Source: Myxococcota bacterium (GTDB lineage Bacteria > Myxococcota_A > SURF-8). Taken from it: a stretch of DNA of 64,000 bases. The stretch is taken from positions 1,824,001 to 1,888,000 of the forward strand of contig CAXXQS010000001.1 in the NCBI GenBank assembly GCA_963674735.2. The letters are read 5' to 3'. Under the pieces are notes generated by a model. It was not told the origin of the DNA. It did no database searches and saw nothing but the letters and a program-made list of their open reading frames with translations. Shown one piece after another: positions 4,427-18,604 of this stretch. Position 1 is the first letter of the stretch; each line of letters opens with the position of its first letter. The position numbers and the translations under genes were made by a program.

Positions 4427-5377
4427 ATGAACTTGAGTGAACGCGTTTTACAAGGCGATCTACGAGCAGCCGCACGCCTAATGCGGCTGGTGGACGACGA
4501 CTTCGAATCGGTCGTGGACGAGATGAAAGCCCTTTATCCACACACCGGTCGAGCCGCCATTCTGGGCGTCACGGGTAACCCCGGGGCGGGTAAATCTTCG
4601 TTGGTTGACCACATCATTACACGCTACCGCGAACGTGGAAACAAAGTAGGCGTGGTGGCCATCGACCCCACCTCCCCTTTTTCCGGTGGTGCGATTATGG
4701 GCGACCGCTGCCGCATGGAGCGTCACTTCACAGACGACGGTGTTTTTATCCGCTCCCTGGCCACGCGCGGCCACCTGGGCGGGCTATCCAAATCTACAGG
4801 CGAAGTGATTCGCGTGATGGAAGCCTGGGGAGCCGATCCGATCATCGTGGAAACCGTCGGTGTGGGTCAGGACGAGGTTGACGTAGCTAAGATGGCCCAC
4901 ACATCACTCGTGGTGATGGTGCCCGGTCTGGGAGACGAAATCCAAGCCATCAAAGCCGGAATAATGGAAATCGCCGATATCTTCGTGGTTAATAAAGCCG
5001 ACCGCGAGGGCGCCGAAAAAGTAATGAGTGAAATCAAAATGATGCTTGAGTTGGTCCATCCCGAAGAAGGCAATCCCTGGATCCCTCGCATTCAAAGAAC
5101 GGTGGCATTCAAAAACCAGGGAATCGACGAAGTCGTCGCGTCTATCGACGAACATCAGACCTGGCTGGCCACCACCCACAACCTGGAGACCAAACGCCGT
5201 CAAAACGCTGAATTGCAGTTTTACGATCTTTTGCTCGATCGTTTCCGACTGAGGGTGGAAGCATTGCTGGAAGCCCCCGAGTTTACCGATTGGGCCGAGC
5301 ACCTCGGCCAACGCACACTCGATCCCTATTCCCTGATCGACCGACTCGAATCCCGGCTGACGCCGCCCAAGTCCTGA
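4427..5377 (+). CDS. meaB: Methylmalonyl-CoA mutase-associated GTPase MeaB/ArgK
   Basis: GVTGNPGAGKS, IDPTSPFSGGAIMGDR, ETVGVGQDE, DEIQAIKAG, NKAD. Confidence 0.93.
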   Translation: MNLSERVLQGDLRAAARLMRLVDDDFESVVDEMKALYPHTGRAAILGVTGNPGAGKSSLVDHIITRYRERGNKVGVVAIDPTSPFSGGAIMGDRCRMERHFTDDGVFIRSLATRGHLGGLSKSTGEVIRVMEAWGADPIIVETVGVGQDEVDVAKMAHTSLVVMVPGLGDEIQAIKAGIMEIADIFVVNKADREGAEKVMSEIKMMLELVHPEEGNPWIPRIQRTVAFKNQGIDEVVASIDEHQTWLATTHNLETKRRQNAELQFYDLLLDRFRLRVEALLEAPEFTDWAEHLGQRTLDPYSLIDRLESRLTPPKS

Positions 5378-5385
5378 ATCTTGCC

Positions 5386-8043
5386 ATGGCCAAATCGTCT
5401 AAAAAAAGCCTGACACCCGCCTCAGCCACGACACCGATGATGCGTCATTTTCTCGAAATTAAGGCGGATCATCCCGACAGTCTGATTTTCTACCGTTGCG
5501 GCGACTTCTACGAAACCTTCTACGACGACGCGGTTACGGCTGCGCGCGAGTTGGACATTACTCTCACATCCCGCGATAAAAACAGCGAGAACCCCGTGCC
5601 GCTGGCGGGCGTTCCTTACCACGCGGTTCAGGGTTACCTGTCGCGCCTGGTCGACAAAGGTTACAAGGTCGCCATCGTCGAACAAGTGGAAGATCCCAAG
5701 CAGGCCAAAGGGATGGTCAAGCGCGAAGTAGTACGAATCGTAACCCCCGGCCTGGTCATGGATGGTGACAATCTGGCCGCCGACGAAAATAATTTTCTGG
5801 TATCGATTTTCGGACACGAAAAGCGCTTCGGTCTCGCTCTACTCGACATCAGCACCGGCGAATTTCGTTGCACCGAGCTGAACGACGAAGCGGAATTATC
5901 CAATGAAATGGTCAAATTGACCCCACGCGAAATCCTCTTCCCGGATGCTTGGCGCGACTCCGAAGAAATCGCTCGCTGGTTGCCCTGGAACGCCCGGCCC
6001 CTGATCGACTACCGCGCCGATGTGGAATTCGATGCCCGGCGCGCCGAGGAATTGTTGTGCCGCCAGTTCCAGACATCCAACCTGAAGGGTTTCGGAGTTG
6101 ACGGTCTACCGCTCGCCTTGCGTGCAGCCGGTGCACTCATGAGTTACGTACAGGAAACACAGCGCCAACGGGCGGAGCACATAACCGCTCTTACCCCGTA
6201 TTCATCCAAGGAATTCATGGTCCTTGACGAGGCCACCAAAGTTAATCTCGAACTTGAGCGCACCATTCTCGATGGACGTAAGCGAGGATCTTTATTAGGT
6301 ATTCTCGACCGATGCCGAACACCCGTGGGGTCACGCACACTCAAACGCTGGCTCAATTACCCGCTGATGGACGTCGCCCGTATCCGCGAACGTCACAACA
6401 TTGTGGAAGAATTCTTTTTACATGGCACCTTGCGCGCCGAGATTCGGGAACTTCTGGCCCGCGTGGGCGATCTCTCCCGCTTGTCGGGACGCATCACGAT
6501 GGGGCATGGCAACGCCCGCGACCTTGTCACCTTGAAAGAAGCTCTGCAAGCCTGCGCCGAACTGAAGGTTTTCCTCGACCAACAACGTCCCGATCTCTTT
6601 GTCGGCTTTTCTCAGGCCGTAGATCCGCTGCCCGATCTGACCGACCGGCTATGCCGAGCCATCGTAGATGAGCCTCCCGCCACCGTGCGTGAAGGACGTA
6701 TGTTCAAAACGGGTTACCATTCCGACCTGGACAGTTTGATTTTAATGTCGGAGCACGGCAAAGACGAGATTCTGCGGATCGAAGCCAAAGAGAAAAAAGC
6801 TCTTGGTGTGCCGTCACTCAAGGTACGTTACAATCGGGTTTTCGGTTATTATATCGAGCTGACGAAGTCGCATGCCGATAAAGCCCCAGCACATTATGTC
6901 CGTAAACAAACACTTACCAATGCCGAGCGCTACATCACTCAGGAATTAAAAGAGTTCGAGGACCAGGTCCTTAACGCCGAAGACCGCCGCCACGAACTTG
7001 AATACACCTTGTTCGAGGAACTGCGCCGGTTTGTCACCGACCAGACCGCGTCCCTGATGCTGACGGCCGAAACCATCGGCATTCTCGACAGCCTTTCCAC
7101 TCTGGCAGAGGTGGCCGCCCTTAACGATTACGTGCGCCCTAGCATCGACGCCTCGGATGCCATTCACATTGAAGACGGCCGCCATCCGGTTGTCGAAGCC
7201 CTCCAAAAAAACGAAAGCTTCATCCCCAACGACACGCATCTTGATTGCAGCGATCGTCAGTTGTTGCTGATTACCGGTCCCAATATGGCCGGTAAGTCAA
7301 CGGTTATCCGCCAGGTAGCCTTGATTGCCCTGATGTCGCAGATCGGGAGTTTCGTGCCGGCCCGGAAGGCCGATCTGAGTGTTGTCGACCGCATTTTCAC
7401 ACGTGTCGGCGCGGCCGATAACCTAGTGCGCGGCCTCTCGACTTTCATGGTCGAAATGACCGAAACCGCCAACATCCTGCACAATGCCACGTCCAATAGC
7501 CTGATTATCCTTGATGAGATCGGGCGCGGCACGTCCACCTACGATGGGCTTTCCATCGCCTGGGCCGTAGCCGAATATTTGCACGATCACCTGCGCGCCA
7601 AAACCATGTTCGCCACCCATTACCATGAATTGACCGAACTGACTCGCGCCAAACCACGTGTACACAACCTCAACATTTCGGTGCGCGAATGGAAAGACCA
7701 GATCATCTTTTTGCGTAAACTGATAGAAGGTCCAGCCAACCGCAGCTACGGCATCCAGGTCGGACGCCTGGCCGGACTACCCGACCCCGTTATTCAACGA
7801 GCCAAACAGGTCCTGCACATCCTAGAATCGGGCAAGCCTGACCGCCTCTTCGATGACCGTCCGTCTAAAAGAAAACCAGCATCGTCCCCCAACCAACTTT
7901 CGTTATTTTCCGTGCGCGAAGTTGAACGCGATCACCCGATCATCGATGAACTCGATCAACTTTCCCCCGAATCGCTGTCGCCGATCGAAGCTTTGACCAT
8001 TCTTTTCGATTGGAAAAAACGCCGCAGTAACGAGAATCCGTGA
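5386..8043 (+). CDS. mutS: DNA mismatch repair protein MutS
   Basis: TPMM, GDFYETF, TGPNMAGKST, STFMVEM, DEIGRGT, FATHY, SYGIQV. Confidence 0.97.
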   Translation: MAKSSKKSLTPASATTPMMRHFLEIKADHPDSLIFYRCGDFYETFYDDAVTAARELDITLTSRDKNSENPVPLAGVPYHAVQGYLSRLVDKGYKVAIVEQVEDPKQAKGMVKREVVRIVTPGLVMDGDNLAADENNFLVSIFGHEKRFGLALLDISTGEFRCTELNDEAELSNEMVKLTPREILFPDAWRDSEEIARWLPWNARPLIDYRADVEFDARRAEELLCRQFQTSNLKGFGVDGLPLALRAAGALMSYVQETQRQRAEHITALTPYSSKEFMVLDEATKVNLELERTILDGRKRGSLLGILDRCRTPVGSRTLKRWLNYPLMDVARIRERHNIVEEFFLHGTLRAEIRELLARVGDLSRLSGRITMGHGNARDLVTLKEALQACAELKVFLDQQRPDLFVGFSQAVDPLPDLTDRLCRAIVDEPPATVREGRMFKTGYHSDLDSLILMSEHGKDEILRIEAKEKKALGVPSLKVRYNRVFGYYIELTKSHADKAPAHYVRKQTLTNAERYITQELKEFEDQVLNAEDRRHELEYTLFEELRRFVTDQTASLMLTAETIGILDSLSTLAEVAALNDYVRPSIDASDAIHIEDGRHPVVEALQKNESFIPNDTHLDCSDRQLLLITGPNMAGKSTVIRQVALIALMSQIGSFVPARKADLSVVDRIFTRVGAADNLVRGLSTFMVEMTETANILHNATSNSLIILDEIGRGTSTYDGLSIAWAVAEYLHDHLRAKTMFATHYHELTELTRAKPRVHNLNISVREWKDQIIFLRKLIEGPANRSYGIQVGRLAGLPDPVIQRAKQVLHILESGKPDRLFDDRPSKRKPASSPNQLSLFSVREVERDHPIIDELDQLSPESLSPIEALTILFDWKKRRSNENP

Positions 8044-8120: not shown

Positions 8121-8858
8121 ATGCCTAGCACCGAGTCGAACAAAAACCTGACCAACGCTCTTGAAGACTACTTGGAGACGATCCAACATTTCGTCGATGA
8201 AAAAGGATTTGCCCGCATTCGGGATATTTGCGATGCAAGAGGTGTCAAATCCGGATCTGCCTCTCCTGCCGTAAAACGCTTATCGGAAATGGGATTGATC
8301 CATCATCAGCAGGGAGAATTCATAACCCTGACGAGCAAGGGCGAAGCGATCGCGCGTCGTACACAAGTGCGTCACGATTTACTGGTAAGGTTCTTTAACG
8401 GTTTCCTTCGCGTCGATGCCAGCCAGGCAGAAAAAGATGCCTGTGCCATTGAGCACCATCTCTCGGATGCAAGCATGGATCAGTTGACCCGACTGTTCGA
8501 ATTTTTACAAAATTGCCCCGAGGGCCAAAATGATTTTCTGAAGAATTTCCACAATTGCCCGATCGTCAGTACGGATAATAAAGCTTGTGACCATCACTGC
8601 AAAACTCATAACCGAAAAAAAGGAGCGGCTATTTCAAAAGGGCGGCTGCTTAGCGATCTTGAGATTGGTGAACAAAGCTCGATTACCCGCGTCAATGCTC
8701 CGAACGAAATCCGTCATAAACTTCTCAATCTCGGGTTCATTCCCGGGGCGAAAGTCGAATTGGACCGGATCGTACAAGAGAAAGGAATTAGACTTCTTTT
8801 GAATAATCACCCCGTCCACTTGACTATGCAGGAAGCTCGGTCCGTAAAAGTACAATAA
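8121..8858 (+). CDS. DtxR/MntR-family metal-dependent regulator with C-terminal FeoA domain
   Basis: LEDYLETI, RHDLL, DACAIEHHLS, FeoA-like KLLNLGFIPG; GGAGG RBS. Confidence 0.9.
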   Translation: MPSTESNKNLTNALEDYLETIQHFVDEKGFARIRDICDARGVKSGSASPAVKRLSEMGLIHHQQGEFITLTSKGEAIARRTQVRHDLLVRFFNGFLRVDASQAEKDACAIEHHLSDASMDQLTRLFEFLQNCPEGQNDFLKNFHNCPIVSTDNKACDHHCKTHNRKKGAAISKGRLLSDLEIGEQSSITRVNAPNEIRHKLLNLGFIPGAKVELDRIVQEKGIRLLLNNHPVHLTMQEARSVKVQ

Positions 8859-8863
8859 TTTTT

Positions 8864-8892
8864 TTGACCTATGTGCTAGTTGCGACTAGCGC
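8864..8892 (+). promoter_or_regulatory. Putative promoter with inverted repeat (candidate DtxR-family operator) upstream of feoA
   Basis: TTGACC -35; GCTAGT-tgcg-ACTAGC inverted repeat at 8875-8890. Confidence 0.4.
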
Positions 8893-8918
8893 TGTTAGGC
8901 GCGATTGCAGGAAGGAAA

Positions 8919-9515
8919 ATGAACAAAAAAACGAAACATCATTTTGCCCCGCACCTTGGTGGAGGTGGCTATCCGCTAACCATGGCCGCTCCAGGAGAAT
9001 CGGTTGTGGTTCTTTGTTGCAACACCCGCGATCCGGACCTGAACCGACATCTGAGTGATATGGGAATCAGCCCTAGTGGAGTTCTTCAGATACTGTGCAA
9101 TGAAAATGGCCGTTTGACCGTTTTAACCGGTGATGCACGTATCGGAATCGATTCGGAGTTAGCAAGAAAAATCAATGTATCTCCCGCATGCGGCAGGCAC
9201 CATTGCCATCAGCATGAAGGTCACTGCCACAGACATCCATGTGCCTGCGGCGCAAAAAACGAAAGGAGTAAATCGGTGAAAGTTTCAATCAGTGCCGATG
9301 CCCTGATGAAAGGTCAGGAAGGAATCGTCAAACAAGTGAAAGGCGATCGAGCCGTCAATCGCCGGTTGCGAGACATGGGGTTGACGCCGGGGTCCCGCAT
9401 CCGCTGTGAAGGGAAAGCGCCTCTGGGCGATCCGATCGAGTTGGCGATTATGGGATACAAATTGACGCTTCGTAAAAGCGAAGCGGTCGGTGTTCTGGTG
9501 GAGGTGGAGGAATGA
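8919..9515 (+). CDS. feoA: Tandem FeoA-FeoA protein with His/Cys-rich linker
   Basis: HLSDMGI and RLRDMGLTPG...APLGDP...LRKSEA; linker CGRHHCHQHEGHCHRHPCAC. Confidence 0.88.
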   Translation: MNKKTKHHFAPHLGGGGYPLTMAAPGESVVVLCCNTRDPDLNRHLSDMGISPSGVLQILCNENGRLTVLTGDARIGIDSELARKINVSPACGRHHCHQHEGHCHRHPCACGAKNERSKSVKVSISADALMKGQEGIVKQVKGDRAVNRRLRDMGLTPGSRIRCEGKAPLGDPIELAIMGYKLTLRKSEAVGVLVEVEE

Positions 9516-11641
9516 GCAGCTTCACCATCGCCTTGGCAGGCAATCCCAATAGCGGTAAAACGACTATTTTCAATGCGCTGACGGGTGCCCGGCAACACGT
9601 GGGTAACTATCCGGGAGTGACCGTCGAAAAGAAAAGCGGGACGTTTATAGAAAACGGACACCCCATCGAAGTGGTGGACCTTCCCGGAACCTATAGTTTG
9701 ACGGCCTATTCGGAAGAAGAACAAGTGGCCCGACGCTTTGTTCTTGGTGAATCCCCCAACCTCATCGTTGATGTTGCCGACGCGTCCAACCTGGAACGAA
9801 ACCTTTACTTGGCGGTCCAGTTTATGGAAATGGGACAGCCGCTTGTGCTGGTTCTCAACATGCACGACGTCGCCGCAAATAGAGGAATTAAGATCGATCA
9901 TCAACGCCTTTCCTCCTTGTTAGGTGCGCCTGTCGTGCCGACGATCGCCAGCCACGGAAAAGGGCTCAATGTACTGAAATCAACCGTTCTCCACCGCGCG
10001 GAACGGGATAACAGCTTAAATTCGACAAAGCTTTCATACGGGGGCGATATCGATGCGGCACTCGATGAATTGGAGCCTCTTCTTGCAAACGATTCGTTTT
10101 GCCGGGAACGCTTCAATCCTCGTTGGCTGGCGCTTAAACTGATCGAACATGATGAAGAATTGACTGAGCTGGCACAGAACAATCTAAAACAGAGCGAAGA
10201 TGTTTTCGCTATCGTAAAACGTGTCACGATACACATCGAAAGCACCTTGGATGACTTACCCGAGAATGTGGTATCGGATTACCGTTACGGCTTTATCACC
10301 TCTGTCATCAAAGAATGCGTCACGCGTCCGGAAGTGGATCGTCGTACATTATCGGACAAACTCGATAAAGTACTAACTCACCGCATGCTGGGTCCGATAT
10401 TCCTGCTGGCGGTCATATGGGCCTTGTACGAGTTTGTCTTTACGGCCAGTGAAACTCCCGTTGGTTGGGTTGAAACTATCTTTGGCTGGCTCGGCTCTGC
10501 CGTTGAAACCGGCATGGCCGACGGTTTGCTCAAATCCATGATCGTATCGGGCGTCATCGACGGCGTCGGCGGTGTTTTGGGCTTTGTCCCCTTGATCATG
10601 TTCATGTTTTTCTTTATCGCCATCCTGGAGGACTCGGGGTACATGGCGCGAGTTGCGTTCATCCTTGACCGTGTGCTGCGTAGTTTCGGCATGCACGGCA
10701 ATTCGATGGTGGCCTTGATCGTATCCGGCGGCATCGCGGGCGGTTGCGCGGTACCCGGCGTGATGGCGACACGGACTCTGCGCGACCCGAAAGAACGACT
10801 GGCTACGATCCTCGTGGCGCCTTTTATGAACTGTGGAGCGAAGTTACCTGTGTTTGCCTTGTTGATCGCGGCTTTCTTCTCGGCACATCAGGGCACGATG
10901 ATGTTTTTGATCACGCTGCTGTCCTGGGCTTTCGCCTTGATCGCGGCTCGAATTTTGCGTGGCACGATCATCAAAGGAGAGTCTTCGCCGTTCATTATGG
11001 AGCTTCCTCCCTATCGGATACCGACCTTGCGAGGACTGCTGATCCACATGTGGGAACGAACCTGGCAATACATCAAAAAAGCGGGAACGATTATTCTGGC
11101 CGTCTCCATTCTGCTTTGGGCCTTGATGACATTCCCATCCCTGCCGGAAGAAAAAGCCACTGCAATTGAAGCCGAGACGACCCAAGGGGTTGCGGAAGAT
11201 GTCGTCGCCAACAAGCTGGCCGAAGCAGAGTTGGCACATTCCGTCGCCGGACGTGTCGGGAGAGCTTTGGAAGCGATTACCCAACCCTTGATGGGTTTCG
11301 ATTGGCGTACCAATATCGCCCTTGTCGGCGGATTTGCGGCAAAGGAAGTCGTCGTTGCAACGCTCGGTACCGCCTATTCCCTGGGAGAGATAGATCCCGA
11401 AGAGTCCGAATCACTTTCGGAAAGGCTGGCGAACGATCCTGGCTGGACACCTTTGTCCGCCTTCGCCCTCATCCTGTTTATTATGCTGTATGCCCCTTGT
11501 TTCGTGACGGTAGCAGTGATCAAACGCGAAACCCAGAGCTGGAAGTGGGCGGGTTTTTCAATGCTGTACACAACCGCAGCGGCGTTTGTCATTGCGACAG
11601 CCGTGTACCAGGTCGGCTCATTTTTGGGGATCGGAGTTTAA
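9512..11641 (+). CDS. feoB: Ferrous iron transporter FeoB
   Basis: GNPNSGKT, NYPGVTVE, DLPG, EDSGYMAR, MELPPY, FAAKEVVV. Confidence 0.97.
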   Translation: MSSFTIALAGNPNSGKTTIFNALTGARQHVGNYPGVTVEKKSGTFIENGHPIEVVDLPGTYSLTAYSEEEQVARRFVLGESPNLIVDVADASNLERNLYLAVQFMEMGQPLVLVLNMHDVAANRGIKIDHQRLSSLLGAPVVPTIASHGKGLNVLKSTVLHRAERDNSLNSTKLSYGGDIDAALDELEPLLANDSFCRERFNPRWLALKLIEHDEELTELAQNNLKQSEDVFAIVKRVTIHIESTLDDLPENVVSDYRYGFITSVIKECVTRPEVDRRTLSDKLDKVLTHRMLGPIFLLAVIWALYEFVFTASETPVGWVETIFGWLGSAVETGMADGLLKSMIVSGVIDGVGGVLGFVPLIMFMFFFIAILEDSGYMARVAFILDRVLRSFGMHGNSMVALIVSGGIAGGCAVPGVMATRTLRDPKERLATILVAPFMNCGAKLPVFALLIAAFFSAHQGTMMFLITLLSWAFALIAARILRGTIIKGESSPFIMELPPYRIPTLRGLLIHMWERTWQYIKKAGTIILAVSILLWALMTFPSLPEEKATAIEAETTQGVAEDVVANKLAEAELAHSVAGRVGRALEAITQPLMGFDWRTNIALVGGFAAKEVVVATLGTAYSLGEIDPEESESLSERLANDPGWTPLSAFALILFIMLYAPCFVTVAVIKRETQSWKWAGFSMLYTTAAAFVIATAVYQVGSFLGIGV

Positions 11642-11652
11642 GGAGAAAACAT

Positions 11653-11826
11653 ATGCTTGATTGCATTCTGATCGGTCTTGTCGTGCTTATGGCCATTTCC
11701 TACTTGGTTTTGGCTCTACGAAAAAAATGCAGGGCCGTATCGACCCCTTGTGCTACGGGCTGTAGCAACTGCAATGGCTGCTCCGTTCGGATCCAAGAAC
11801 AAAATCAAACGGATAATCGCCAATGA
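11653..11826 (+). CDS. FeoB-associated Cys-rich membrane protein
   Basis: AGGAG RBS, one TM helix, then CATGCSNCNGC. Confidence 0.8.
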   Translation: MLDCILIGLVVLMAISYLVLALRKKCRAVSTPCATGCSNCNGCSVRIQEQNQTDNRQ

Positions 11827-13030: not shown

Positions 13031-14332
13031 GTGAATGTCATGTCTTACAAGCCCGTTCATCCTCTGCTTGCCTATCTCGCGCCGATCAGGCCCGGTCATC
13101 GCTTTGCTGGACATTTCCGCCTCAACGATATCCAGGGCGAACACGACGCCGTCCTGCAATTGACGGATGAACGTAAAGGAAAAGTTTTCGCCATTCATGT
13201 TCAACCCGCCGACCGCAAGGGTGGAGCATTGATACGTACACCTCGCCTTAAACTGGCCTGGCCCAATCCCTATCCACCTGACCGTGAAACCGAGCGTCTG
13301 GTACGCGTAATCGGCCGGATTCTGGAACAAAACCTCGTTTCGACTTCCGAAGCGGAGTTCCAGGCACTCTTCACACAATCACCGGGTCCATCAGAACTTG
13401 TCCCTGTCCCCGCCGAACAGGTCATGGAGCTCTTGGTAGGATTGGAATGCAGTTCCAATTGCCTTTTTTGCTCTGATCGCCCGGACACTCGTCCCGGTCC
13501 TGAAAAAGCGCACCTCCTCGATGTCTTGCAAAAAGGTTACGAACAGGGGTTTCGCGGACTTGAATTCGGAGGACTGGAACCCACTTCACGTCGGGACTTG
13601 CACGATCTAATCGCAGCGGCTCGCAGTATCGGCTTCAAGAGCATTCAGGTTATCTCCAACGGTGAACGTCTCGCCGACTCCGGCTATCTACGAGAACTTT
13701 TCGATGCCGGATTGAGCATGCTCGTATTGTCGATCCACGCAGCAGACGAAGCCACCGAAACCACGCTCACCCGCTGCCCCGGCCTCTTCGCCAAAAAGCA
13801 GCAAGCGCTTAAAAACCTGCAGGAACTCCTCGGCAGCCGAGCGGCTCAACGTCAAACCGGTCGTTTTTTCCGCAGCAATACCGTCCTTGCTCGACCCAAT
13901 CTTGAGGGACTGCAGACTTTGATCGACTGGCTGGACACCTACGAACCCAGCGCTCTTTTTCTGCATTATCCATGGATCAACGGACAAGCCCAGCGTCACT
14001 TCGCAGAGATCGTCCCAAGCTACGCAGACGTGGAAATAGCACTCGGACCCTTGAAAGCTCGCCTCAACGACGAAAACGGTCGTCTATCGGTATTAAATCT
14101 CCCCCCCTGCATCGGTCGTGCCTTCGCTTCGCGTCAGATTACACACAAAAATATTCTGGTTAACTCGGAGAGCCGGATGAACAGCTCTTCGGATGAAATC
14201 TGCACAGATCCCATGGACAGCAGTCTTACCCACGCCGAACCCTGCCGACGTTGCCAAGCCGTCGTCACCTGCCCAGGTATCTCGCGACATTACCTATCTC
14301 GCTACGGGGCTGACGATCTCCGGCCTTTCTAA
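13031..14332 (+). CDS. Radical SAM protein, HxsC-like, with ~130-aa N-terminal extension
   Basis: CSSNCLFC, GLEP, LPPC, C-terminal CRRC-x5-CPG...YLSRYG. Confidence 0.8.
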   Translation: MNVMSYKPVHPLLAYLAPIRPGHRFAGHFRLNDIQGEHDAVLQLTDERKGKVFAIHVQPADRKGGALIRTPRLKLAWPNPYPPDRETERLVRVIGRILEQNLVSTSEAEFQALFTQSPGPSELVPVPAEQVMELLVGLECSSNCLFCSDRPDTRPGPEKAHLLDVLQKGYEQGFRGLEFGGLEPTSRRDLHDLIAAARSIGFKSIQVISNGERLADSGYLRELFDAGLSMLVLSIHAADEATETTLTRCPGLFAKKQQALKNLQELLGSRAAQRQTGRFFRSNTVLARPNLEGLQTLIDWLDTYEPSALFLHYPWINGQAQRHFAEIVPSYADVEIALGPLKARLNDENGRLSVLNLPPCIGRAFASRQITHKNILVNSESRMNSSSDEICTDPMDSSLTHAEPCRRCQAVVTCPGISRHYLSRYGADDLRPF

Positions 14333-14379: not shown

Positions 14380-14419
14380 AAAAAAAAATGGCGAGAGTTT
14401 GGGGGAGGCCTCTCGCCAT
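14380..14419 (-). terminator. Intrinsic terminator closing the putative sRNA
   Basis: Minus strand ATGGCGAGAG-gcctcccccaaa-CTCTCGCCAT followed by a T-run. Confidence 0.85.
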
Positions 14420-14488
14420 ATCCGTTACCCCGATACTGCAGGTAACGAAAGTGCCGGTTCGAGCTAGGGGGCTTCTCGAACCAACCTC

Positions 14489-14593
14489 GTAGGGTCCAAC
14501 GATACTGCTGTCGAACTCTACGATGCGGAATTCGACGATACTGCTGCCGAATCCCACAATGCGAAACCCAACGATACTGCTGTTGAATTCCAC
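14489..14593 (-). repeat. Three tandem 36-nt hairpin repeats with invariant AGCAGTATC loop
   Basis: GATACTGCTG on the + strand at 14501, 14537 and 14573; a fourth GATACTGC at 14432. Confidence 0.9.
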
Positions 14594-14683
14594 TTGGACA
14601 GTCGCCGGTAGGGGGAACCGGCTAAATCCTTACTGAGGGCAAATGATTCAATGAACAGATCAAATCAGTCGAGCAATTGTTAT

Positions 14684-14700
14684 AGCAAACATGGTGCCAA
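14684..14700 (-). promoter_or_regulatory. Sigma-54 (-24/-12) promoter
   Basis: Minus strand TTGGCACCATGTTTGCT, exact GG-N10-GC spacing. Confidence 0.82.
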
Positions 14701-14829
14701 CTTTAGAATATTCATCACGTAATCACATGAAAACGAAATTATATCTGTCATATCAGCCATATGTAATTCCTGCAAAAATGGATCTCGACGTTATTCCTTT
14801 TCAACCAACCAACCATCCAAAGCTGGCAC

Positions 14830-14884
14830 GTGCATATTATGCACTTTCCTCCAGACGCTCTCGCACTCTGCGCAATTATTTCGC
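14830..14884. promoter_or_regulatory. Candidate enhancer (UAS) pair for a sigma-54 activator
   Basis: Perfect 7-1-7 palindrome GTGCATA-T-TATGCAC (14830-14844) and related GCGCAAT-T-ATTTCGC (14870-14884), 130-185 bp upstream of the -24 element. Confidence 0.5.
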
Positions 14885-14965
14885 TATTCCTCGCTTTTTC
14901 CTTGCTCCAACTCTTGAAAACCGCTAATCTGATTCAGGTCAGGCACAGATTTCGGAGAATCAATT

Positions 14966-16366
14966 ATGCCCTCTTTGACAAAGAAAAGGGTCCTCGTCAT
15001 CGACGATGAGGCCTTGGCACGTTCCACAATCTCATTCTATTTACAGGATGTTGGCTATGATGTAGTCGAAGCGGCCAGCGCCGAGGAGGGCTTGCGGCTC
15101 ACCCTGGAACATACTCCCCAGGTTGTTGTGTCGGACATTCGTCTGGAAGGTATGTCCGGCATTGAACTACTTGGAAAAATTAACGAAATACATCCCAACA
15201 CCTTGGTTATTTTGATTACCGCCTACGGCACCATCCAGGAGGCGGTTAACGCCATGAATCTGGGGGCTGAAAACTATCTGACAAAACCCGTGAATTTATC
15301 GGAACTTGAACTTATCGTCGACCGCGCAATCGAGAAAAGTAACCTCATTCAAGAAACGCATTATTTACGTCAACAGCTTCGTGCCACCAAGAAATTTGAG
15401 CGTTTGGTGGGTAATCATTCCAACATGCAAGACGTGTTCAAGATCATCGAACAGGTGGCTCCATCGATGGCCAACGTCCTTATCTATGGCGAATCCGGAA
15501 CCGGTAAGGAACTGGTTGGAGAAGCCATTCACCGCCTTTCCAGCCGGGCAGACGGTCCATTCATTAAAGTTAATTGCGCCGTTTTTTCAGAGACTTTGCT
15601 CGAAAGTGAATTGTTCGGCCATGAGAAAGGGGCCTTTACCGGCGCCTACACACGCCGTGAAGGACGCTTCGAAGCCGCAAACGGAGGAACGCTATTTCTA
15701 GACGATGTCAACGTCATGCCCGAAGTCACCCAGGTGAAAATTTTGCGTTTCCTCCAGGAACGCGAACTGGAGCGCGTCGGCGGCACGAAAACCATCAAAG
15801 TTGATGTGCGTGTCATCGCCGCAACCAACCGCCCCCTCAATGAAGAAGTACAACTGGGCAATTTCCGCGAGGATCTCTACTATCGCCTCAACGTCATCCC
15901 CGTGAACCTCCCGCCGCTACGCGAACGTAAATCGGACATCCCACTTTTAGTCGGTCATTTCGTCAAAAAATACGCAGAAAAGAACAACGCTAGCGTCCGT
16001 GATATCGATGACGACGCCTTGGCATTGTGCATGAATTACGATTGGCCGGGCAATGTTCGAGAACTCGAAAATATCATCGAACGAGCCGTTATCATGACAC
16101 GTGGAGAAACGATTCAGCGCAAACATTTCCCGACTCTCGAAAAAGACTCACCCAGTTCGGATGATCACGGCATCATAGTGGGTCGCACAATGGATGAGAT
16201 CGAAAAAGAGGCTGTGTTAAGAACTTTAGCTGCTTTTCAAGGAAGTACTAAAAAAGCGGCTGAGACTCTAAACGTCAGCGTACGAAAAATTCAGTACAAG
16301 TTAAAACAATACCGAAAAGAAGCCATCGCCAGCGGAGAACCGCTGGACGAAATCCTAAAAAAGTGA
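14966..16366 (+). CDS. NtrC/AtoC-family sigma-54-dependent response regulator
   Basis: Receiver domain, GESGTGKE, GAFTGA, WPGNVRELEN, C-terminal HTH. Confidence 0.95.
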   Translation: MPSLTKKRVLVIDDEALARSTISFYLQDVGYDVVEAASAEEGLRLTLEHTPQVVVSDIRLEGMSGIELLGKINEIHPNTLVILITAYGTIQEAVNAMNLGAENYLTKPVNLSELELIVDRAIEKSNLIQETHYLRQQLRATKKFERLVGNHSNMQDVFKIIEQVAPSMANVLIYGESGTGKELVGEAIHRLSSRADGPFIKVNCAVFSETLLESELFGHEKGAFTGAYTRREGRFEAANGGTLFLDDVNVMPEVTQVKILRFLQERELERVGGTKTIKVDVRVIAATNRPLNEEVQLGNFREDLYYRLNVIPVNLPPLRERKSDIPLLVGHFVKKYAEKNNASVRDIDDDALALCMNYDWPGNVRELENIIERAVIMTRGETIQRKHFPTLEKDSPSSDDHGIIVGRTMDEIEKEAVLRTLAAFQGSTKKAAETLNVSVRKIQYKLKQYRKEAIASGEPLDEILKK

Positions 16367-16462
16367 GACAATACCCATTCCCTATCGGAATTCCTATTGC
16401 GAAGGTCGGTCTTCGCTTCATACAACCGGGTTGAAGTTCCCGGATGCCGTCGGAGCAACGCA

Positions 16463-18604
16463 ATGAAAGCTAAATCAACGTTTGTCAGCGTTTTATTGGT
16501 CTCGCTGATTCTTCTGATTTCTGCCTGTGGCGGAGACGACTCTTTTTCTCCGGATCCTGATGACTCCGATGGCGATCAAAACGGAAACACCGAGACACCC
16601 GATGAAGACGAAATTTCTCCGGATGGTGACGACGTCACCCCAGACGGCGATGCAGACGATACGGGAGAAGAGGGGGAAGCCCCCCCCGAACCCGGCCCGA
16701 TCGATATCGATGAAGTAGCCGGATTGATGCATGCATTTGATTTTACAGATGATTCCTATTTGTTTTCAGCCCCTTTCCCAAACGATTTCTATATCGGGGA
16801 GGATGGTCTTGTCGATCTACCCGGTTTCCCCAACCCGAAGAACAGTTCGATGGCCAGTGACTTCATCGCAGCGGCCGAAGACCTTCTGGACGGCTTTGGC
16901 GTCAACACGCCCTCCTACTGGGTTTTCGAAGCCCCCCTCGATCTCACTTCGCTTCCCGCCGATCCAGCCGATACCCTGAGTTGGGATTCTTCTTTGCTGT
17001 TGATCAATATCGACCCCGCTTCCCCGCGTTACGGCAACCTCAACCCACTGGAATGGCATTGGAATCCTGAAGCCAATGTATACGAGGTGGCCAACATGCT
17101 GGCCGTCGCGCCCTACGATGGCTTTCCCCTTGACCCTCTGACAACTTACGCCATGGTTCTAACCGACAGTCTAACGGACGTTGATGGCAATCCGCTTGGC
17201 CGCCCCAAGCTTCTGGCTGATTTACTCTCGGGACGCGAAGACGGAGCCCTGGCCGATGCCTACAAACCGCTGGCCAACTGGCTCGGTCTCGACACCACTC
17301 CCCTCGTCCCGGAACGGGTGCGAGCGGCCACCGTCTTCACCACCCTGGATACCATCGGCGAGGTGAAAGCCATCCGCGATTATCTGGTTGATGAATATCC
17401 CAATGGAGCCGTCTCCGGGGACTTGGTCGATTGCACCTTCGATCATGCCGAAAATGGTTACCTGATCTTCAAGGGGCACTACACCGCCCCGAATTTTCAG
17501 GAAGGTGACGTTCCTTATGCCAGCGAAGGCGGCAACATCTATTTCGGTGAAAACGGCGACCCCATCGTGCAGATGACCGAAACCCTGCGTTTCGCCGTTA
17601 CCATCCCCATGAACCTCGACGTCCCAGCCGCCGGTTGGCCGATCGCCATGATCTCCCATGGTACGGGCGGGCGCTACAATTCCTACATTCGCGGTGGAGG
17701 CCGCTCCCGCTCGGTTCTCCTCACGGAAGCCGGACTCGCAACCATCGGAATCGACCAGCCGCTACATGGCGACCGTGGCAACGAAGCCACCAACGTCGAG
17801 CTGCATACCTTCAACTTTTTCAACCCCGAATCGGGCCGCAGTGTGTTCCGGCAGTCTGCCATCGATACGGTATCACTCACCCGACTCATCGTGGCAGGTG
17901 TTTTAAGGCTCGATAAATCGGTTTGCGACAGTTGGCCGACGGAAGCCGTCTATACCGGTCCCGATGAAATCGTTTTCGATCCGGAACTCATCTCTTTCCA
18001 TGGACACAGCCAAGGCGGCATGAGTGGTTCGCTGGCGGCAGCGGTGGAAGACGACGTGCAAGGTTGGGTTCTGTCGGGTGCGGGCGGTCGCCTCGCCATC
18101 ACCGTACTCGAACGCGAAGATCCGGACCTCCTGGGACTCATGACACCGATGATCGGTATCCAGGTCGAAGAAGCTCACAAACACCACCCCATCGTCGGCT
18201 TGCTGCAATGGCTAACCGAAATCACCGATATGATCAACTATGCCCCTTATTGGATCGGCTATCCCCACGACGGACGTCCCAAACACATGATGCTGACCAG
18301 TGGCTTCGTCGACCCTTATACTCCCAAAAACACAGCTTTCGCACTCGCGGTAGCCGGTCGCGTCCCGCTCCTTGAAGAAGTCCATGAAGCGATGCCCGGA
18401 CTGGAATTACGCGGTCTGAGTGCGTTCGCTCGTCCAGCAACACTGAACATCATGGCGCCTAACGGTCAACGCGCTACAGCCGGTTTCTGCCAGTACCCGG
18501 AGGATGGCCATTTTGCCGTGTTCGACAACGATGACGCAGCCTGGCTCTACCAGGAATTTCTGCGCTCCCTTTCTTACGCACAGGCACCCGTACTGGGCTA
18601 CTGA
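16463..18604 (+). CDS. Lipoprotein alpha/beta hydrolase (lipase-like)
   Basis: Lipobox ISAC, acidic DGD linker, SHGTGG, DQPLHGDR, GHSQGG, late DGH. Confidence 0.75.
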   Translation: MKAKSTFVSVLLVSLILLISACGGDDSFSPDPDDSDGDQNGNTETPDEDEISPDGDDVTPDGDADDTGEEGEAPPEPGPIDIDEVAGLMHAFDFTDDSYLFSAPFPNDFYIGEDGLVDLPGFPNPKNSSMASDFIAAAEDLLDGFGVNTPSYWVFEAPLDLTSLPADPADTLSWDSSLLLINIDPASPRYGNLNPLEWHWNPEANVYEVANMLAVAPYDGFPLDPLTTYAMVLTDSLTDVDGNPLGRPKLLADLLSGREDGALADAYKPLANWLGLDTTPLVPERVRAATVFTTLDTIGEVKAIRDYLVDEYPNGAVSGDLVDCTFDHAENGYLIFKGHYTAPNFQEGDVPYASEGGNIYFGENGDPIVQMTETLRFAVTIPMNLDVPAAGWPIAMISHGTGGRYNSYIRGGGRSRSVLLTEAGLATIGIDQPLHGDRGNEATNVELHTFNFFNPESGRSVFRQSAIDTVSLTRLIVAGVLRLDKSVCDSWPTEAVYTGPDEIVFDPELISFHGHSQGGMSGSLAAAVEDDVQGWVLSGAGGRLAITVLEREDPDLLGLMTPMIGIQVEEAHKHHPIVGLLQWLTEITDMINYAPYWIGYPHDGRPKHMMLTSGFVDPYTPKNTAFALAVAGRVPLLEEVHEAMPGLELRGLSAFARPATLNIMAPNGQRATAGFCQYPEDGHFAVFDNDDAAWLYQEFLRSLSYAQAPVLGY

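Follow-up and report, generated by a model that had tools for sequence, protein, structure and literature searches.

A predicted sigma-54-dependent small RNA family with C-rich hairpin loops and an amplified second loop class in one order of Myxococcota

A stretch of 64,000 nucleotides (nt) from a Myxococcota bacterium (assembly GCA_963674735.2, contig CAXXQS010000001.1, positions 1,824,001 to 1,888,000; the stretch is called the window here, and the genome G000) carries on its minus strand what is very likely a real gene for a small RNA (sRNA). The predicted transcript starts at a sigma-54 promoter, folds into a series of hairpins and ends at an intrinsic terminator, and it very probably represents an undescribed regulatory RNA family that extends across one order of the phylum. 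The feature conserved across that order, in 9 of 10 genomes, is a C-rich hairpin loop and not the GCAGUAUC loop, on which an earlier note made from the letters of the window had laid its emphasis. In G000, the GCAGUAUC loop is carried by three tandem hairpins and by a further hairpin of unrelated stem sequence. The explanation preferred here, to which a probability of about 0.5 is given as a whole, is a sigma-54-dependent sRNA that would pair with mRNAs through its C-rich loops and would present a second loop module besides.

The sRNA Locus

The earlier note had recognized an unannotated sigma-54-type sRNA gene bracketed by a consensus −24/−12 promoter and a T-tailed terminator about 295 nt apart. 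This view was upheld: both signals lie where it had placed them (Table 1), the locus is non-coding, its structure belongs to the minus strand and no Rfam family matches it. The pattern TGGCAC-N5-TTGCW has a single match in the window, where 0.07 would be expected, and at least one match was obtained in 7 of 100 shuffles. The genome encodes rpoN and contains 17 intergenic sigma-54 consensus sites, among which the sRNA promoter alone has no same-strand gene within 17 kb. The distance to the next gene on this strand exceeds 17 kb, so the sRNA locus is not an mRNA leader. The position of the promoter on the minus strand predicts a start of transcription near 14673. The terminator was missed by a simple scanner because the scanner allows loops of 3–8 nt only, and the loop here has 12 nt. 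A sigma-70-like match, ATTACA-18-TATAAT (10/12), is found at 14738–14767 of the minus strand, 40 bp upstream of the sigma-54 promoter; it is at chance level (one found, a mean of 1.5 in shuffles).

Folding of both strands with RNAfold, a check that the earlier note had proposed, assigns the structure to the minus strand. The minus strand folds at −118.5 kcal/mol (z-score −5.39), and none of 100 shuffles folds as well, whereas the plus strand reaches −90.3 kcal/mol (z-score −0.68) and is equalled by 20 of 100 shuffles. The minus-strand fold has nine hairpins: seven strong ones, as many as the earlier note had counted, and two weak ones near the 5′ end. Comparison with Rfam 15 at gathering thresholds gave no match to any family, either in the window or in nine homologous loci. 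When matches with E up to 10 were admitted, one match to HIV-1 SL4 was obtained (15.9 bits, gathering threshold 31), which lies outside the sRNA and is attributed to chance.

Distribution in the Order

A BLAST search with the sRNA in 61 relatives recovered the terminator in genome G004 only. Because this search was nearly empty, homologues were traced through the gene of the neighboring NtrC-type response regulator, which is divergent from the sRNA. The comparison comprises 10 genomes of the order, six of them in the family of G000. The five other genomes of the family encode a regulator orthologue with 65–73% identity, and each orthologue is accompanied by a divergent sigma-54 promoter, a multi-hairpin RNA of 210–240 nt and a terminator; the regulator and the divergent sigma-54 multi-hairpin RNA thus occur together in all six genomes of the family. 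In the four other genomes of the order, the regulator is 59–67% identical and a divergent sigma-54 RNA is present in three. In G007, the regulator is present and no sRNA was found within 1.5 kb. An equivalent sigma-54 promoter is found at all eight homologous loci of the order.

A covariance model built from the promoter and the 5′ third of the RNA (model R1) was searched against 151 genomes of the phylum, as the earlier note had advised for related genomes. It recovers exactly the six loci of the family (E 1e-19 to 1e-24); an additional match, inside an open reading frame (ORF) of more than 1000 aa, was rejected as false. A scan of contigs with the regulator found one close relative at 73% identity, and the other 53 loci were at most 50% identical. 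Beyond the order, no regulator exceeds 55% identity; inspection of 21 such loci (50–55%) gave four promoter-like matches and no comparable RNA. Metagenome scans with a 20-mer of the terminator gave no matches, and scans with a pattern of the 5′ motif gave five, none of which is sRNA-like. The organisms of the order are known only as metagenome-assembled genomes.

C-rich Loops

Across the nine RNAs, the stems differ in sequence, and all 32 runs of at least four C are unpaired in the minimum free energy folds. The G000 sRNA has three loops with such a run, and each of the eight homologues has three to six. Over the nine genomes, the terminator stem has compensatory changes at 6 of 10 pairs, while the C-run of the terminator stays in the loop. 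Likewise, the stem of hairpin SL-A (Table 1) shows compensatory changes in 6 of 10 pairs in the family alignment. For SL-A across the nine genomes, no RNAalifold consensus was obtained, because the MAFFT alignment is not structural.

The GCAGUAUC Loops and Their Amplification

In G000, Tandem Repeats Finder detects a repeat of period 36 with 2.6 copies and 76% matches, and the three units form the three tandem hairpins. A recount of the pairs agrees with the earlier note: 35 of 36 stem positions pair, nine of them as G-U, whereas on the opposite strand, where G-U pairs do not work, 27 of 36 do. The note had also described the loops as invariant and the stems as differing by swaps that preserve pairing. 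Indeed, the nine loop columns are constant, whereas 13 of the 24 stem columns show changes, exclusively transitions (hypergeometric P 0.0044), with double compensatory changes at three pairs. The fourth stem of unrelated sequence carrying the same loop, which the note had reported as well, corresponds to hairpin SL-D (14449–14421). The word GCAGTATC occurs six times in the window, where 0.85 copies are expected; none of 100 shuffles reaches six, and four of the six copies lie in the sRNA locus. A covariance model of the 36-nt unit (model R2) scores the G000 units at 29.8–31.3 bits and the next best match in the genome at 19.7 bits. Other hairpins with a GCAGUAUC loop elsewhere in the genome are all inside ORFs.

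Within the order, the GCAGUAUC loop is found only in G000. In relatives, the hairpin before the terminator carries related GYNGUAY loops, which contain, for instance, GCGGUAU, CUAGUAU or UUGUAC. Thus, the 36-nt units are regarded as having arisen in this lineage by amplification of an older GYNGUAY-loop hairpin. The RNA of G004 contains five AGUA-containing copies (GCAGUAU, GUAGUAU, GUAGUAC and others), which lie inside large loops and linkers. AGUA is enriched in G000 (P 0.006) and G004 (P 0.003) only.

A second lineage was found by a pattern search for loop arrays in 401 genomes of the phylum, in which most matches were rejected as short coding repeats and one as a 19-nt DNA repeat. In genome G165, which belongs to another family, an intergenic locus has three tandem hairpins. 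Each shows AGCAGUAUC as its loop, closed by a C-G pair, and their stems bear no relation to the G000 stems. The array is preceded by a C-rich-loop hairpin and followed by one whose loop shares CCUCCCCCAA with the terminator loop of G000; a terminator comes next. The locus folds with a z-score of −7.81. This array of 24–25-nt hairpins is present in all four genomes of the genus of G165 (g126) and was absent by BLAST from 39 other genomes of its family. Its promoter is conserved and sigma-70-like, a uvrD/pcrA-like gene is found upstream of the array, and no regulator gene is close by. In the most distant genome of the genus, the loops are the variants UGUUGUAUC, UGCAGUACC and AGCAGUACC, and in G000 together with three g126 genomes all nine loop bases and the closing pair are invariant. 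Over the 12 units of both lineages, 95.2% of cells pair, compared to 76.2% in shuffles (0 of 500 reach the observed value), 6 of 7 stem pairs show double changes, and controls slid along the sequence pair at 31–45%. In 150 other genomes, model R2 gave seven matches, all rejected as lying in stop-free frames of 338–890 aa. Together with the pattern search, this indicates that the hairpin module is rare, yet not unique.

Two readings would dispense with an RNA gene. The locus would encode a small protein if the minus-strand ORF at 14593–14354 (79 aa, GTG start, 12-residue repeat) were translated; 36 is divisible by 3, and no stop codon interrupts the frame in any of the three units. This reading is barely credible, given that the GTG has no Shine–Dalgarno sequence, that the ORF crosses the terminator hairpin and has no Pfam match, that homologues vary in hairpin number and length, and that the changes between units fit pairing and are transitions only. 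Conservation of codons rather than base pairs among homologues, by which the earlier note would have judged the RNA refuted, was not observed: the closest pair of homologues (91% identical) shows three indels within the transcript (1, 2 and 2 nt). Alternatively, the units, being tandem and palindromic, might act as DNA, as palindromes like repetitive extragenic palindromic (REP) sequences or miniature inverted-repeat transposable elements (MITEs), as an array like clustered regularly interspaced short palindromic repeats (CRISPR) or as protein-binding repeats. An example of a DNA repeat is at hand in the 19-nt repeat with GCAGTATCGAT by a gene start in genome G228. For G000, however, a DNA-level element is very improbable: the genome has one such locus, G-U pairs form on one strand only and the fold is asymmetric between strands, a promoter and a terminator frame the element in nine genomes, and the units have no intervening spacers of the CRISPR kind.

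The repeat of G228, a genome of another family, is located on the minus strand at about 1500–1640 of G228:C17 (L159), where about seven copies of the 19-nt direct repeat adjoin the gene start. It may be a DNA-binding array, because no hairpins are formed.

The Divergent Regulator and Candidate Enhancer Sites

The regulator divergent from the sRNA has a receiver domain, a sigma-54 AAA+ domain and a Fis-type helix-turn-helix (HTH) domain. Orthologues are present in all nine other genomes of the order, with 59–73% identity, and the regulator is the only neighbor conserved beside the sRNA. No kinase gene is adjacent. The spacer between the two genes contains two palindromes (Table 1) of the kind expected of enhancer sites for the regulator, and they are candidate upstream activating sequences (UAS). 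Read by eye, a GCGAAA-N4-5-TTKCGC-like palindrome stands at the matching place of the spacer in all nine sRNA-bearing genomes, and a second, AT-cored palindrome lies 30–45 bp promoter-proximal to the first in homologous spacers. A tally of 7-mers in the spacers found TGCGAAA or GCGAAAA in 6 of 9. Of the 10 genomes searched in the order, nine combine the sRNA with this regulator, and conserved palindromes lie upstream, so that the regulator is the likely activator of the sRNA. Control of the sRNA by sigma-54 and the neighboring regulator is predicted from the conserved linkage with good confidence.

Table 1. Predicted features of the sRNA locus and its neighbors (window coordinates)
Feature	Position	Strand	Description
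Radical SAM protein gene	13031–14332	+	Left neighbor, converges on the sRNA terminator
Predicted primary transcript	14380–14673	−	About 294–295 nt, bounded by promoter and terminator
Intrinsic terminator	14380–14419	−	10-bp stem 14419–14388, 12-nt C-rich loop GCCUCCCCCAAA, then nine U
Hairpin SL-D	14421–14449	−	Unrelated 10-bp stem, loop GCAGUAUCG; predicted fold
Hairpin SL-C	14453–14485	−	C-rich loop AAGCCCCCUAG; predicted fold
Three tandem 36-nt units	14486–14593	−	12-bp stem, AGCAGUAUC loop and 3-nt spacer each
Hairpin SL-A	14604–14622	−	C-rich loop UCCCCCU; predicted fold, stem covaries in family
Conserved 5′ segment	14637–14656	−	GUUCAUUGAAUCAUUUGCCC; best-conserved stretch in alignment of six family genomes
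Sigma-54 promoter	14684–14699	−	TGGCAC-N5-TTGCT, TGGCACcatgtTTGCT; −24 GG 14698/14697, −12 GC 14686/14685
Candidate enhancer palindrome 2	14830–14844		GTGCATAATATGCAC; about 165 bp upstream of predicted start
Candidate enhancer (UAS) palindrome 1	14869–14885		AGCGAAATAATTGCGCA; about 205 bp upstream of predicted start
NtrC-type response regulator	14966–16366	+	Pfam Response_reg, Sigma54_activat, AAA_lid_14, HTH_8; divergent from sRNA

Relation to Known sRNAs

The earlier note had not recognized the loop motif and had drawn parallels with sponge RNAs only. A precedent for the repeated-loop sigma-54 design is NrsZ of Pseudomonas, which is the closest known design. NrsZ depends on sigma-54 and NtrC, is encoded beside ntrC and has a primary transcript of at least 226 nt (PMC4253122). 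Depending on the species, it contains one to six stem-loops, nearly identical and all with the same loop motif, and it is processed into hairpin units of about 40 nt. It has been suggested that the loops engage an mRNA leader in a kissing complex, and rhlA is a demonstrated target (PMC4253122). The G000 sRNA resembles NrsZ in its sigma-54 consensus promoter and adjacent gene for an NtrC-type regulator, both of which are conserved here. However, the loop motif of NrsZ is ACAGGCAG and that of the G000 units is AGCAGUAUC, so the sRNA does not belong with NrsZ by loop motif, and it comes from another phylum with no visible sequence relationship. The units of NrsZ are also parted by spacer stem-loops, whereas here the spacer has 3 nt; NrsZ has no C-rich loops; and it lies tail to tail with ntrC, whereas the G000 sRNA is divergent from its regulator.

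The C-rich loops have their counterparts elsewhere. sX13 of Xanthomonas has three C-rich loops and acts without Hfq on G-rich motifs near translation starts (PMC3771888), 6C of actinobacteria is a C-rich-loop sRNA (PMC6486639), and RsaE and RNAIII of Staphylococcus are C-rich-loop sRNAs as cited in PMC3771888. Such sRNAs have lengths of 100–115 nt with two or three loops, have proven targets and are not reported to depend on sigma-54 (PMC3771888, PMC6486639). Like sX13, 6C, RsaE and RNAIII, the G000 sRNA has stable stems that bear CCCC or CCCCC in their apical loops, and its 5′ end is short and unstructured. With at least two apical loops of at least four C, it falls by structure into this class, which is functional and not a homologous family. 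Unlike these sRNAs, it has a second repeated loop type, and its targets are inferred.

Within the phylum, the comparison is with Pxr of Myxococcus xanthus, for which a sigma-54 promoter and, upstream of it, an enhancer region are predicted, and which adjoins pxrR, a gene for an NtrC-like regulator that controls its synthesis (PMC5684412). It has three stem-loops, of which SL1 and SL2 are conserved and SL3 has an 8-bp stem, and is located downstream of pxrR-pxrK (PMC5684412). The two sRNAs share the phylum, a sigma-54 promoter, a neighboring NtrC-like regulator and a multi-stem-loop structure. Compared by description only, the G000 sRNA differs from Pxr in having 7–9 hairpins, in being divergent from its regulator and in lacking an adjacent kinase, whereas Pxr lies downstream of pxrR in the same direction with pxrK alongside. 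Pxr is the only Myxococcota sRNA in the limited collection of literature searched, and the present family is not described there. The family would be a second one in the phylum with a sigma-54 promoter and a response regulator, and it is conserved across an order. All elements of its design are known singly from other sRNAs; new are the joining of two loop classes on one scaffold and the independent amplification of the second loop class in two families.

Proposed Mechanism and Alternatives

In the proposed mechanism, the sRNA would act in trans and would be transcribed by sigma-54 polymerase when the divergent NtrC-type regulator binds the two upstream palindromes. The C-rich loops (at least four C, terminator loop included) would repress the translation of several mRNAs by pairing with their ribosome-binding regions where these are G-rich. 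Such repression would need no Hfq, and Hfq was not found in the genome (94% complete assembly). By analogy with the C-rich-loop sRNAs, action of these loops by base pairing is given a slightly better than even chance. In G000, one hairpin type with the loop (A)GCAGUAUC(G) would have been amplified by tandem duplication to four copies, its stems drifting through G-U intermediates as the loop was kept constant. Constancy of the loop during drift of the stems suggests that the GCAGUAUC loops are a second, multivalent recognition element. As in NrsZ, each GCAGUAUC loop, possibly after processing to single hairpins, may enter kissing or seed pairing with RNA containing RAUACUGC. This NrsZ-like mode is, by analogy, the most likely way for the loops to work, with protein binding nearly as likely, and pairing of the loops with RNA is put forward tentatively.

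Several results weigh against this explanation. All tests on start regions use gene starts from a crude ORF caller with demonstrable errors. TAGGGG, the complement of the CCCCUA loops, is found in 23 start regions compared to one control window; this enrichment, which would favor pairing by the C-rich loops, is inflated because an in-frame TAG is impossible in coding control windows; GGGGG is not enriched at starts (77 compared to 68). Annotation of the 17 genes, out of 23, whose TAGGGG stands at a Shine–Dalgarno-like distance brought out no evident shared function; among them are CheA, AcrB, a type II/IV secretion ATPase, FliP, an O-antigen ligase, a PMT-type glycosyltransferase and an FHA protein. 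For the GCAGUAUC loops, the earlier note had raised the possibility of a repeated seed and proposed a scan of 5′ regions, which shows no enrichment at translation starts. The exact complement GAUACUGC is found in one of 3987 start regions, where control words gave 3, 4 and 0. Extended complements occur 10 times genome-wide (10.04 by uniform expectation), and duplexes predicted at or below −12 kcal/mol number 6, compared to a mean of 5.6 for 30 shuffled seeds. Every candidate target site inspected lies in coding sequence. The evidence for activation of the sRNA by the regulator, which is likely, consists of linkage and motifs. The g126 array, with its sigma-70-like promoter and no regulator, indicates that the link between sigma-54 and the GCAGUAUC loop is not general. 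Finally, four sequencing runs contain the locus, none of them recorded as RNA, and their locus contigs are identical or fragmentary DNA only. A single target, as rhlA is for NrsZ, would not show as enrichment.

Among the rejected target sites, the two with an 11-nt complement are both in coding sequence, and a tandem complement at C1:790649 belongs to a repeat within the coding sequence of a lipoprotein-like gene. This 30-nt repeat (G000:C1:790600–790700; L003 1440–1560) encodes the peptide TEQDTADGDL and contains the loop complement twice, by chance. The 16S rRNA gene has one 8-nt loop complement, which is at chance level.

Sponge RNAs such as CsrB/RsmZ and CrcZ carry many copies of a short motif in loops or single strands; CsrB/RsmZ titrate CsrA, and CrcZ, which depends on sigma-54 and CbrB, titrates Hfq/Crc. 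The four GCAGUAUC loops, together with the five YAGUA copies of G004, could likewise titrate an RNA-binding protein, in which case the C-rich loops might still pair. This alternative is possible, if doubtful. It would account for identical multivalent sites on stable stems of unrelated sequence, for a motif multiplied differently in at least three lineages (G000, G004 and g126) and for the survival across lineages of a short degenerate core, GYNGUAY; in addition, the complement and duplex searches found no signal of an RNA target. Conversely, no RNA-binding gene is linked to the locus in G000 or g126 and no candidate protein was found. Unlike in CsrB/RsmZ, none of the nine predicted hairpin loops contains GGA, although CsrA is encoded in the genome; a CsrB-type sponge is excluded for this reason, and CsrA is not an obvious partner. 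Unlike CrcZ, the sRNA shows no A-rich stretch of the CrcZ type, and Hfq was not found in the genome. A constant stretch of nine loop bases plus the closing pair would be large for a protein-binding site and is what pairing seeds typically show, and the C/U alternations among loop variants would all still pair with a target G. A different possibility is that the hairpins have no specific partner and serve to stabilize the RNA, to space the C-rich loops or to allow processing by RNase, and that they look conserved because they were duplicated recently. The units are indeed tandem duplicates 76% alike, and the order-wide core of the family works without them. Nevertheless, this is improbable, since recent duplication fails to explain 13 changes in stems against none in loops and since the same 9-nt loop stands on unrelated stems in another family and in SL-D.

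The family would be a case in which an sRNA acquires a new recognition module through duplication of a hairpin in tandem, and purifying selection acting on the loop can be seen within one gene. That the same loop stands in an array at an unrelated locus in another family speaks for a partner that is itself conserved. A broader and more speculative proposal, which is on balance unlikely, is that GYNGUAY loops (GCAGUAUC in G000) are recognition sites of a novel Myxococcota RNA-binding protein or of a conserved RNA. If it held, the sRNA would be a two-channel regulator, in which C-rich loops silence G-rich ribosome-binding sites and an expandable second array titrates a separate partner; at least two families, with different promoters, would each have amplified the second array on their own. 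A protein partner would make this a sponge system that is new and comparable to CsrB/CsrA. With one promoter, one regulator and two loop types, the locus is a compact test case in which pairing and titration are separable by mutation of the loops.

Neighboring Genes and Other Observations

A cluster for ferrous-iron uptake (8121–11826) lies 2.5 kb from the sRNA and follows mutS (5290–8043). It encodes a fusion of a DtxR-type repressor with FeoA, as well as FeoA, FeoB and a possible FeoB-associated small protein, and in relatives the cluster is not kept next to the sRNA. Immediately after the regulator, at 16397–18604, a 735-aa protein is encoded that has no Pfam match and a weak NCBIfam match to VolA/Pla-1 phospholipase; it also follows the regulator in G001 and G003, with 53–56% identity.

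In sequencing run X3, a contig of 238 nt is identical to the 5′ third of the sRNA (window 14550–14661) with flanks that differ on both sides, and its depth is about four times that of other X3 pieces. It could come from a second strain with a rearranged locus or be an assembly chimera. Elsewhere in G000, outside the window, two further intergenic sigma-54 consensus promoters (G000:C2:1333063, minus strand, and G000:C2:1240624, plus strand) are followed by 190–390 nt of structured sequence with terminator-like hairpins, with the nearest following gene on the same strand 563–590 nt away. These promoters may drive sigma-54-dependent non-coding RNAs or long leaders.

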